Positions 28,252 through 29,772 of a stretch of DNA of 64,000 nt are shown one piece after another; the first letter of the stretch is position 1; each line of letters opens with the position of its first letter. The position numbers were made by a program, and so were the translations under genes. Location: assembly GCA_036703985.1 (NCBI GenBank), contig DATNQN010000123.1:62816-126815 (forward strand), written 5' to 3'. The DNA comes from Leptolyngbyaceae cyanobacterium (lineage in GTDB: Bacteria > Cyanobacteriota > Cyanobacteriia > Cyanobacteriales > Aerosakkonemataceae). Below the pieces are notes generated by a model. That model was not told where the DNA came from. It worked only from the letters and a program-made list of their open reading frames with translations, and made no database searches.

Positions 28252-28360
28252 TAGTCGGAAAAAATAGGAAGAAGTCGGAGATATTGTAAAATAAATATGA
28301 AATTTAGTAAAATTTGCTTGCCGAAGTCGGAGAAAGTAGGAAAAAGTCGGATTATAATAG
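28252..28360. promoter_or_regulatory. Divergent intergenic region with four AGTCGGA(G/A)A motifs arranged as two ~30-bp direct repeats (candidate operator)
   Basis: agtcggaaaaaataggaagaagtcggagatat ... agtcggagaaagtaggaaaaagtcggattat lies between the divergent starts at 28164 (-) and 28387 (+). Confidence 0.4.
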
Positions 28361-28386
28361 TGAAAACACCGACATCTACCCAACCA

Positions 28387-29772
28387 ATGGACGTTAAAGA
28401 AGTGTTAAAAGTAGCCGATCGCCTAATTTTTACCAAAACAGGGAAACATCTAGACGATCTGCAAGAAGCTATCTTACGGGGAACGGTGCAAAATCAGAAA
28501 TATTCAAAAATAGCAGAAGAATTTAATTGCACAGAAGGTCACGTTAAGGATATCGCTTCTGAACTTTGGAAGGTACTATCACATATATTAGGCGAAGATG
28601 TTAATAAGTCCAATGTTCGCTCTACAATGGAAAGGTGTCAAATATCTATTGTTTCATCGAAGTTAGCAAAAGACTTTGTAGGAATTAAAAACGTTAACCT
28701 TTGTACAACACCTTTACAACCTCCAGAAGCCTCACAAGATCGATCGCACGAAACTAAAAACCCGGTTTCTCCAAGAAACCGGGTTTTTGTAGATGATGCA
28801 CCGGATCTCGGCAATTTCTACGATCGCACAGAAGAACTGGCTACCCTAGAAAAATGGATTGTGCAAGAACGCTGTCGTCTCGTTGCACTTTTGGGGATAA
28901 GCGGGATCGGAAAAAGTGCGATCGCAGTTCAGCTACTCAAGCAAATTCAGGATAAATTTGACTGTGTAATTTGGCGAAGTTTGTCGGACAAACCACCACT
29001 AGAATTAATCCAAAAAGAACTAATTGAATTTTTATCTAATCAACCGGAAAGCGAATTATTAGGTAGTGGAAAAAATAAGCGATCGCAATTCATAGAATAT
29101 CTGCGAAAGCAACGCTGTCTGATCGTATTCGATGATGTACATCAGATTTTTATTGGCGGACAACTAGCTGGTAGCTATGAAACTGGATATGAAGATTATG
29201 GATTATTCTTTAAAAGACTAGGAGAATTACATCATAATAGTTGCTTGCTGTTGCTTAGTTGGGATAAATCAAGAGAAATTGTGGCATTTGAAGGCGAAGG
29301 TAAATTAGTGCGATCGCTACAATTAAATGGTTTGGGTATTGCAGCAAGGGAAATACTCAAAGAGAAAGGTTTAGCTGATGAAGATAAATGGGAAGAATTG
29401 ATTCACCTTTACCAGGGGAATCCATTATGGCTAAAAATAGTAGCAACGCTGATTAAAGATTTGTGCGGTGGTAGAGTGGCTGAATTTTTGAAATATGATG
29501 AATTATTTGTGAGTGAGGATTTAAAAGATATATTCGATCGACAGTTTAGTAAGTTATCAGATTTAGAGAAACAGGTAATGTCTAGATTAGCGAATCAAAA
29601 TGAACCTGTTTCTATCTCTCAATTGTTAAATGATGTGCAGATATCGCCTTCAGAGTTATTCAAGGTAATGCAATCTTTGGGAAGACGTTGTTTGCTGGAA
29701 AAGAAAGAGAATGGAGAGACGGTTTTTAAGTTGCAAGCTGTGGTGAGGCAATATTTGAAAAATCAGTGCTAG
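28387..29772 (+). CDS. STAND NTPase: N-terminal LuxR/sigma-70-region-4-like HTH fused to an NB-ARC (AP-ATPase) domain, with no C-terminal repeat array
   Basis: HTH-like LDDLQEAILRGTVQNQKYSKIAEEFNCTEGHVKDIASELWKVL. P-loop GISGIGKSAIA. Walker B CLIVFDDVHQ. The GNPLWLKIV motif corresponds to the GxP(L)AL motif of NB-ARC. The protein ends after the winged-helix region. Start taken at MDVKEV (28387). Confidence 0.65.
   Translation: MDVKEVLKVADRLIFTKTGKHLDDLQEAILRGTVQNQKYSKIAEEFNCTEGHVKDIASELWKVLSHILGEDVNKSNVRSTMERCQISIVSSKLAKDFVGIKNVNLCTTPLQPPEASQDRSHETKNPVSPRNRVFVDDAPDLGNFYDRTEELATLEKWIVQERCRLVALLGISGIGKSAIAVQLLKQIQDKFDCVIWRSLSDKPPLELIQKELIEFLSNQPESELLGSGKNKRSQFIEYLRKQRCLIVFDDVHQIFIGGQLAGSYETGYEDYGLFFKRLGELHHNSCLLLLSWDKSREIVAFEGEGKLVRSLQLNGLGIAAREILKEKGLADEDKWEELIHLYQGNPLWLKIVATLIKDLCGGRVAEFLKYDELFVSEDLKDIFDRQFSKLSDLEKQVMSRLANQNEPVSISQLLNDVQISPSELFKVMQSLGRRCLLEKKENGETVFKLQAVVRQYLKNQC

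Follow-up and report, generated by a model that had tools for sequence, protein, structure and literature searches.

A minimal NLR-like STAND ATPase with a probable helix-turn-helix output domain and a phased repeat array in its promoter, from a Leptolyngbyaceae cyanobacterium

Can a STAND ATPase that contains no sensor domain act as a transcription factor on the repeats of its own promoter? This question is raised by a gene (28387–29772, plus strand) in a 64-kb stretch of DNA from a Leptolyngbyaceae cyanobacterium (contig DATNQN010000123.1), which is referred to below, at its full length, as the window. The product is a minimal NLR-like STAND ATPase with a helix-turn-helix (HTH) domain as its probable output domain, and the promoter contains two sets of direct repeats. 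STAND/NLR ATPases play a central part in immunity and in cell death, in animals and plants as well as in bacteria. STAND transcription factors (MalT, GutR and AfsR) are already known, and HTH_VMAP-M9 and NB-ARC each have a Pfam entry. To our knowledge, these three are among the few bacterial STAND ATPases that are understood as transcription factors, and all of them have sensor domains. Here, we describe the repeats as a family-wide feature whose sequence covaries with that of the HTH recognition helix. The most likely reading, in which we place moderate confidence, is that the protein would be a self-regulating transcription switch that reads the repeats of its own promoter.

Promoter repeats and the recognition helix

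Two direct repeats of 27 nt each (28253–28279 and 28325–28351, plus strand) are present upstream of the gene and are 89% identical. Each 27-mer consists of three AGTNGGA-type units at an exact spacing of 10 bp, so that the six sites form two phased triplets: AGTCGGA, AATAGGA and AGTCGGA in the distal array, which abuts the -35 element of a divergent promoter, and AGTCGGA, AGTAGGA and AGTCGGA in the proximal array, which covers positions of about -40 to -14. The original prediction had described repeated motifs organized as two direct repeats, and this description holds, with three phased units in each repeat. AGTCGGARA occurs four times in the window compared to 0.72 expected, and three of the four matches are at this locus; the fourth local site is AGTCGGATT at 28345. 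A scan of the window for the paired motif gave five matches compared to 0.47 expected, with four at this locus. A putative -10 box (TATAAT, 28353–28358), read from the sequence, is located one base after the last repeat, and no -35 consensus is present 17 bp upstream of it. If the transcription start is assumed to be ∼7 nt past TATAAT (∼28365), the proximal cores are located at about -39/-34, -29/-24 and -19/-14. The 5′ leader (28359–28386) is without a Shine-Dalgarno sequence and contains the motif CATCTAC and an inverted copy of the repeat core (ACCGAC, 28368–28373).

The promoter layout was surveyed over 140 nt 5′ of each homologous locus (81 loci, drawn from many genera of Oscillatoriales). 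A repeat array with a 10-bp period recurs across the family. Most of these loci have a TAnAAT-type box 33–35 nt before the ATG, which is directly preceded by 3 to >10 tandem repeats of ∼10 bp with the form AAAWGTnnnA. Autocorrelation of the region from -115 to -36 peaks at lag 10 (0.426, compared to 0.26 in 1,620 control windows), exceeds the 99th percentile of the controls at this lag in 63% of the loci, and has echoes at lags 20 and 29–30. Orthologues with 68–86% protein identity barely differ in one segment (...AAGTCGGAAAAAGTCGGATTATAATAGTGAAAAYACCGACATCTACCYAACCAATG), which takes in the proximal repeats, the -10 box and the leader and is better conserved than the coding DNA. A distal block comparable to that of the window is present in orthologues and in many paralogues. 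The leaders of L001–L084 have AAAAC soon after the -10 box and CATCTAC ∼10–15 nt before the ATG, both common to many clades, and an inverted copy of the clade's own repeat core is often found in the leader, as with ACCGAC in the window.

The repeat core varies by clade, and paralogues within one genome also differ, as exemplified by Microcoleus Aus8_D2 (GTCAGA in L031, GTCGGA in L067 and GTAGGA in L073). GTCGGA is found in the window, Phormidium, Planktothrix and some Microcoleus, and the cores of other clades are GTCATA or GTCAGA, GTTGGA or GTTGGG, GTACGA, GTTATA, GTAGGA, GTAGGG and GTGTGA. Tandem GTCGGA-core arrays with 10-bp spacing were also observed in metagenome contigs of 55–60% GC (L085–L204; e.g. 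L108, L115, L117, L128, L160, L180 and L197), where they often consist of TTTGGTCGGA repeated 3 to 8 times.

For 69 loci, the array composition of the 45 nt that precede the -10 box was expressed as 5-mer spectra and compared with each 7-residue window of the 461-residue protein alignment. The top seven of 455 windows all fall within residues 48–60 (CTEGHVKDIASEL), with Lys54, Asp55 and Gly51 as the best columns; in the AlphaFold2 (AF2) model, these residues make up the turn and the first part of the recognition helix. Read by eye, helix signatures and repeat cores pair up: EGH-x-[KR]-D with GTCGGA, EGHVRN with GTCA[TG]A, SE[AD]RVRE with GT[TAG]GGG, NESYVRD with GTTGGA, SESRIRE with GTACGA, EGYVRV with GTTATA, HVKK with GTAGGA and DHIKQ with GTGTGA. 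The loci that combine HVKK with GTAGGA were considered as a case of independent convergence and rejected, as these loci have further HTH residues in common and probably form a single clade.

Over 34 phylogenetically independent nearest-neighbour pairs, array distance rises with helix distance (Spearman rho 0.75, p = 4e-7), and in these pairs the partial r is 0.67 for the helix compared to 0.17 for the C-terminal 320 residues. When the rest of the HTH domain, which has equal linkage to the promoter, is controlled for, the partial correlation still peaks at residues 49–56 and not at the most variable HTH segments. Since the covariation peaks at the turn and recognition helix even within this equally linked domain, it supports binding of the protein to its own promoter, and among the comparative data it is the strongest evidence for this. 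The suggestion of the original prediction that the repeats are the gene's own operator has strong comparative support from the family-wide array and from the covariation, and is kept here as a probable assignment.

The HTH domain (residues 1–85; 28387–28641) corresponds to Pfam HTH_VMAP-M9 (PF26355), a precomputed match on the 100%-identical protein P0001. Modelled alone with AF2, it is all-helical with a predicted local distance difference test score (pLDDT) of 90.5, and the recognition helix (residues 50–68; 28534–28590) is preceded by a helix (residues 39–45) and a turn. The fold matches of best probability in Foldseek are the DNA-bound DosR C-terminal domain, KorA, sigma-E region 4 on -35 DNA, and GerE. 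Probabilities are 0.8–0.92 (DosR-C, KorA, sigma-E region 4 and spr1814), but with E > 0.3 and template modelling scores of 0.43–0.52. The sigma-70 region 4 model TIGR02937 gives a weak match at residues 18–64 (E = 0.013), below its cut-off. An HTH resembling those of LuxR and sigma region 4 had been proposed for this protein. The HTH itself is real, as indicated by PF26355 and the AF2 model, and the likeness to the sigma-4/LuxR fold is weak though consistent; the label is reasonable but weakly tested. The protein cannot be a sigma factor because it has no region 2.

A protein of 541 residues (P0148; L213, 2501–4126) has six tandem HTH_VMAP-M9 matches with a different recognition helix in each copy, and its gene adjoins a small HTH_VMAP-M9 gene and a CHAT-TPR gene. 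Its gene lacks an upstream array, which makes the protein uninformative on whether each HTH takes one repeat.

Architecture and mosaic evolution of the family

The open reading frame (ORF) is listed as 28297–29772, and the true ORF runs from ATG 28387 to the stop at 29772 (461 residues). The sequence M[DNE]xxE begins at the aligned ATG in all but three of 85 homologous loci, and in orthologue L081 a stop codon closes the in-frame extension 5′ of 28387. On this basis, the starts at GTG 28360, as annotated, and at ATG 28297 were dropped. P0001, a protein of 470 residues from a Leptolyngbyaceae metagenome-assembled genome, is 100% identical across the 461 residues from ATG 28387; its deposited annotation begins at GTG 28360, nine codons upstream and within the conserved leader. 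The sequence GCGATCGC is abundant in the window, in keeping with its cyanobacterial origin.

The HTH domain is followed by a disordered linker (residues 86–143; 28642–28815), which is the most variable part of the family alignment, and by an NB-ARC module (28816–29769) consisting of a nucleotide-binding domain (NBD), helical domain 1 (HD1) and a winged-helix domain (WHD; residues 377–461), with which the protein terminates. Pfam NB-ARC matches residues 151–253 with 53.3 bits compared to a cut-off of 23.5 (E = 3e-14). The Walker A (GISGIGKS, 28894–28917) and Walker B (CLIVFDDV, 29119–29139) motifs of the NBD and the GxP motif of HD1 (GNPLWL, 29416–29433) are intact and are kept in the family alignment. 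Thus, the NB-ARC assignment made from the sequence was correct. The full-length AF2 model (pLDDT 73) has a five-helix N-domain, the disordered linker, with pLDDT <50 for residues 86–129, and NBD-HD1-WHD followed directly by the C-terminus. CED-4 is the top Foldseek match of this model (E = 3.9e-11), with plant resistosomes and Apaf-1 also among the top matches, and the family profile matches plant NLR NB-ARC domains and AfsR among Protein Data Bank (PDB) sequences. PADLOC gave no meaningful match for the STAND protein or its divergent partner.

Neither Pfam nor the AF2 model has WD40 or TPR repeats after the winged-helix domain, and the protein terminates at residue 461. Many cyanobacterial NB-ARC proteins bear C-terminal repeats, and the original prediction, which had correctly noted that they are lacking here, regarded this as unusual. 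From that premise, the gene might be a pseudogene, cut short from one that encoded a longer NB-ARC-WD40 or NB-ARC-TPR protein. The family does not agree with it. Among 5.8 billion proteins, 1,558 homologues were found, and the repeat-less form is the standard architecture across them. Length and domain statistics were taken from the best 120 of these homologues: their lengths are 303–500 residues, with 457–500 in all but three, and PF26355 and NB-ARC are found on all but two. The 19 aligned homologues (55–86% identity; 457–478 residues) all terminate after the same winged-helix domain. The 3′ neighbours in orthologous loci are Uma2 and a major vault protein homologue, or other genes, with no repeat array encoded downstream; in the window, Uma2 and then the vault protein also come next. 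With the ORF and its Walker A, Walker B and GxP motifs intact, and all 461 residues identical to the annotated P0001, we conclude that truncation is ruled out. The family is found in Aerosakkonema, Argonema, Phormidium, Microcoleus, Planktothrix, Okeania, Tychonema and other Oscillatoriales.

The family is mosaic. In 22 pairs, identity is ≥80% in the NB-ARC-WHD portion and ≤60% in the HTH. DNA identity profiles run at ∼55–65% across the promoter and HTH, jump to 90–100% at nt +290 to +310 or +385 to +410, and are back to background at the stop codon, with unrelated locus flanks. These breakpoints are sharp and located inside the linker, so that the promoter and HTH behave like one exchangeable cassette and the ATPase like another. 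The NB-ARC-WHD DNA of L019/L062, L027/L042, L012/L021 and L018/L030 is 90–100% identical and their promoters and HTH domains differ, which points to exchange of cassettes, or to partial gene conversion, among family members. The loci that share near-identical C-terminal modules belong to separate but related genomes. Same-genome paralogues are just 34–82% identical in the C-terminal part, and concerted evolution of the ATPase within a genome was rejected on this basis. The locus of the window is itself recombinant inside the intergenic region, relative to its closest orthologues.

The in-frame hairpin of the linker

A palindromic hairpin, AAAAACCCGGTTTCTCCAAGAAACCGGGTTTTT (28756–28788, plus strand), is located in frame in the linker, has a perfect 16-bp stem and encodes ETKNPVSPRNRVF. 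Its folding energy is -24.9 kcal/mol (z = -4.3). This agrees with the earlier description of an in-frame hairpin copy between the HTH and NTPase domains, which had also called the hairpin mobile. The hairpin does belong to a dispersed family: the window has three copies, 16 were counted across several genera in 685 kb of related loci, and copies are widespread among the Oscillatoriales. Its arrival at this site is not recent; the hairpin is ancestral to a clade of several genera and conserved at the nucleotide level. The further GAAACCCGGTTTC...GAAACCGGGTTTC palindromes of the window (37946–37976 and 46909–46939) are 18 and 30 nt past the stops of the plus-strand genes 36384–37928 and 46187–46879, respectively. 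All 17 copies outside the STAND family are intergenic, most of them 5–50 nt after a stop codon and often with a T-run next to them, which suggests that the usual context of the hairpin family is terminator-like or REP-like.

The clade with the hairpin at the same linker position (the window, L081, L082, L084, L206, L002, L207 and L208) covers at least three genera and two paralogue lineages, and includes two Argonema galeatum paralogues. Homologues that lack the hairpin, whose comparison had been proposed, exist: P0002/L205 keeps one arm, equivalent to a deletion between two near-identical arms, and the hairpin is absent from P0012/L001 and P0021. Its presence is, nevertheless, ancestral. The 27-nt core is identical at 27 of 27 positions where the gene is ∼70% identical and synonymous third positions are ∼63% identical (P about 7e-5 per comparison), and changes in the hairpin are confined to the loop codon (Pro, Arg or Ala). 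The downstream U-tract is not conserved, with TTTTT in the window and TTTCT in L084, L002, L207 and L208. Rfam gave no match to the hairpin or the leader at the gathering score, and only chance-level hits; the hairpin sequence was not found in a relevant context in the searched literature.

The dispersed family, with its many copies at related loci, would also fit a neutral, REP-like mobile palindrome that landed in a tolerant linker and is functionless here. This is a real possibility, though not the explanation that we favour. The linker has pLDDT <50 at this site, and the hairpin was lost or halved in P0012/L001 and P0002/L205 while the gene persisted. A neutral passenger, however, would not be expected to keep its core identical across paralogous genes that are ∼70% identical, nor to change in the loop alone, and among 26 copies the STAND-gene clade is the only context inside a long ORF. 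The hairpin is old, and is constrained or homogenized at the nucleotide level, not at the peptide level; as a stretch of protein it is tolerated in the disordered linker. Its most likely roles would be those of an intragenic attenuator or an RNA-processing site; it could also be a pause site or a recombination boundary. REP and BIME elements are likewise short dispersed palindromes, and REPs are usually found just after stop codons. Rickettsia palindromic elements are inserted in frame within protein-coding genes at tolerant sites, like the hairpin described here. No transposase associated with the hairpin was identified, and no Rfam family matches it.

Genomic context and the proposed switch

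A candidate divergent sigma-70-like promoter is located on the minus strand (28225–28253), with -35 TAGACA (28253–28248), a 17-nt spacer and -10 AATAAT (28230–28225). It matches 10 of 12 consensus positions and is the best promoter-like site in the region. TGTCxA at about -140, together with a minus-strand -10 box, is found in 27 of 79 loci, and the clades concerned differ in their repeat cores. In 61 of 73 loci, the closest ORF upstream is transcribed divergently, at a median distance of 222 nt. These divergent partners are non-homologous between clades. Pfam recognizes an AIG1 GTPase with a Gly-zipper tail, DO-GTPase1/2 and Prok-JAB among them, and, judged by eye, others resemble GIY-YIG-like, ParB-like, Gly-zipper membrane and secreted proteins. 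They resemble the kind of variable “effector” set known from conflict systems.

The divergent partner in the window (27823–28164, minus strand; 113 residues plus stop) has no Pfam or NCBIfam match and belongs to a rare family with 27 homologues. One homologue, 83% identical, is divergent at a distance of 225 bp from a different family member, which is 61% identical to the window protein; the left half of the intergenic region there, distal array included, is nearly as in the window. Another, 44% identical (L211/L212, 3001–3399), is in an island bounded by phage-integrase genes that also holds radical SAM, TIR_2 and NB-ARC-TPR genes. This suggests that the 113-residue protein family is a recurrent partner of NB-ARC ATPases.

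No conserved operon partner of the STAND gene was found: the flanking genes, which include housekeeping genes, are conserved only within orthologue groups. Uma2, which is ubiquitous in cyanobacteria, is the most frequent neighbour (11 loci), and a Uma2 endonuclease gene is also downstream of the STAND gene in the window (29820–30371). The second gene downstream (30660–33341, plus strand) encodes a full-length major vault protein (MVP) homologue of 893 residues, with Vault repeats, Vault_2/3/4 and the MVP shoulder domain (E = 8.5e-67), and the order STAND, Uma2, MVP is also found in orthologous loci L081 and L082. Upstream is a toxin-antitoxin-type cluster consisting of HicB-like and HicA genes (25768–26275), DUF433 and DUF5615 (26391–27002) and DUF6887 (27344–27568). 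With these small toxin-antitoxin-type genes, the neighbourhood resembles a variable island. No vWA, MoxR or VMAP-C gene is present within ∼4 kb in three Pfam-annotated orthologous loci, or among the ORFs at 25–33 kb in the window. Since the vWA-MoxR components are absent, this is not a VMAP ternary system.

How such a protein might operate can be outlined from the geometry of the site. One HTH would bind each AGTNGGA unit, and head-to-tail units 10 bp apart would place the bound protomers on one face of the DNA. ATP-driven oligomerization of the NB-ARC module may then result in cooperative occupancy of the arrays. With the proximal triplet at -40 to -14 of a promoter that has a perfect -10 box and is without a -35 element, the protein would control its own transcription, and through the distal triplet, which abuts the divergent -35 element, it would probably also control the neighbouring variable “cargo” gene. 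A clade-specific core and a matching recognition helix would allow several paralogues to coexist in one genome without cross-talk. We infer DNA binding by the HTH from conservation and covariation. Activation and repression have about even chances: activation is favoured by the AfsR-like geometry and the missing -35 element, and repression by a site that touches the -10 box and by the inverted core copy in the leader. The protein has no sensor domain; its activating input may come from a partner protein, as with CED-9 on CED-4, or from direct sensing by the nucleotide-binding oligomerization (NOD) module.

Known systems offer partial parallels. MalT undergoes ATP- and inducer-dependent oligomerization that results in cooperative binding to arrays of asymmetric MalT boxes. 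Like MalT and the LAL proteins, the window protein is a STAND ATPase with a tetrahelical HTH output. Its HTH, however, is N-terminal, whereas that of MalT is C-terminal; MalT also has a large sensor and an arm domain, and belongs to a different STAND clade from the window protein, which is a member of the AP-ATPase/NB-ARC clade. CED-4 likewise has an N-terminal output domain followed by NBD-HD1-WHD, without a C-terminal repeat sensor, and what governs its activity is a partner protein, not a repeat domain that binds a ligand. The output domain of CED-4, in contrast, is a caspase-recruiting CARD instead of a DNA-binding HTH, and CED-4 also contains HD2. A parallel in promoter geometry is AfsR of Streptomyces (SARP-NOD-TPR; PDB 8k60), which consists of an N-terminal DNA-binding domain and an NB-ARC-type NOD, with autoinhibition relieved by ATP binding, and whose binding site, the afs box, is a pair of 11-bp direct repeats that extends from -40 to -19 across a poor -35 element (PMC10936776). 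The order of domains is the same in the window protein, the family profile matches the AfsR NOD, and its promoter has the same head-to-tail one-turn repeats over the -35/spacer region, here as sequence geometry alone. Unlike AfsR, the window protein has a sigma-4/LuxR-like HTH (PF26355) in place of an OmpR-type winged helix and BTAD (Trans_reg_C and BTAD have no Pfam match in it) and has no TPR sensor; its arrays contain 3 to >10 repeats instead of two, the target would be its own promoter, and the last repeat touches the -10 box.

VMAP proteins of vWA-MoxR conflict systems were defined by Kaur et al. 2020 (PMC7159879), where VMAP-M9 is not mentioned. The HTH_VMAP-M9 domain is common to those systems and to the family described here, and the multicellular-cyanobacterial distribution and conflict-type neighbours also fit; the stand-alone architecture and the promoter repeats are not described there, and vWA, MoxR and VMAP-C are missing from the locus. 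In a survey from 2024, NB-ARC (9%) and WD40 are recorded among the accessory domains found on cyanobacterial sigma-70 region 4-type proteins (PMC11119718). These entries probably have the same or a related architecture; the survey is a catalogue, without promoter analysis or function. We found no mention of PF26355 in the literature searched, and no description there of the stand-alone family, the phased arrays, the helix–repeat code, the variable divergent partner or the cassette exchange.

Several observations weigh against a protein that reads its own promoter. The -10 box and both promoters are known as consensus matches alone, and the likeness of the HTH fold to those of LuxR and sigma-4 does not reach significance, with the sigma-70 match under its cut-off. 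No second array of the motif was found within the 64-kb window, which thus gives no indication of a regulon beyond the locus. The six-HTH protein P0148 has no repeat array upstream. A metagenome scan with GTCGGA-N4-GTMGGA-N4-GTCGGA gave at least 120 unrelated tandem repeats, mostly in high-GC contigs, and among the matches listed none was with an HTH_VMAP-M9 gene. Phased A-tracts, as found in the repeats, can act via DNA curvature without any protein. Furthermore, the promoter and HTH are adjacent DNA in a mosaic family, and the covariation is in part co-inheritance of one cassette; the control within the HTH domain lessens this objection without removing it. Such points would fit repeats that are a promoter element not read by the STAND protein: A-tract curvature, an UP-like element or sites at which some other regulator binds, e.g. 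an OmpR-type factor like those that recognize HLR1 repeats with 10-bp spacing, with the covariation resulting from joint inheritance of the cassette. Every unit has an A-tract at helical phasing, the sharp linker breakpoints indicate that promoter and HTH move together, promoter distance also tracks the rest of the HTH domain (r = 0.56), and tandem GTCGGA 10-mers are found in many unrelated metagenomic contigs without such a gene. Curvature, however, does not account for why the non-A core switches discretely between clades while the A-tract, the GT and the phase are kept, and one shared regulator cannot read ten or more cores, some of them within one genome. Nor would joint inheritance be expected to place the signal, within an equally linked HTH domain, at the turn and recognition helix rather than at its most variable segments. 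We therefore consider a promoter element read by something else unlikely.

The N-domain could instead be mainly a protein–protein adaptor or effector-association domain, and the protein an NLR-like immune sensor with a non-transcriptional output. The name HTH_VMAP-M9 (vWA-MoxR associated protein) ties the domain to conflict systems, the closest fold for the whole protein, CED-4, is an adaptor, conflict-type domains occur among the partner genes, and the homologue of the 113-residue partner is in an island with TIR, radical SAM and NB-ARC-TPR genes. However, vWA and MoxR genes are absent within ∼4 kb in the window and in orthologous loci, the domain is a canonical HTH (helix 39–45, turn, helix 50–68), and its fold matches of best probability are DNA-bound HTHs. 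Since this proposal also leaves the operator-like arrays and their covariation unexplained, it appears very unlikely. A further reading combines transcriptional output with conflict: a two-gene “transcriptional NLR” conflict or immunity module, in which a sensor-less, CED-4-like ATPase would switch on or release an exchangeable divergent effector gene via a private operator code. The code would insulate many coexisting copies in a single filamentous cyanobacterium, and new specificities would arise by exchange of promoter and HTH cassettes at the hairpin-bearing linker. We regard such a module as possible but doubtful, and as less likely than a STAND transcription factor that reads its own promoter.

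If a STAND transcription factor of this kind is confirmed, it would be a minimal NLR-like switch that acts through transcription and has no sensor. The family would provide a readable protein–DNA code with at least ten natural helix/repeat pairs, which may serve as a source of orthogonal ATP-gated regulators for synthetic biology, and would show how regulators that are paralogues can exchange ATPase modules and yet remain insulated from one another. The nucleotide-conserved, terminator-like hairpin in frame within the gene offers a tractable example of constraint on an RNA or DNA element within coding sequence. For the family as a whole, the proposal would offer a testable function for HTH_VMAP-M9 and for hundreds of proteins annotated as “NB-ARC domain-containing protein” in bloom- and mat-forming cyanobacteria such as Microcoleus, Planktothrix, Phormidium and Okeania.

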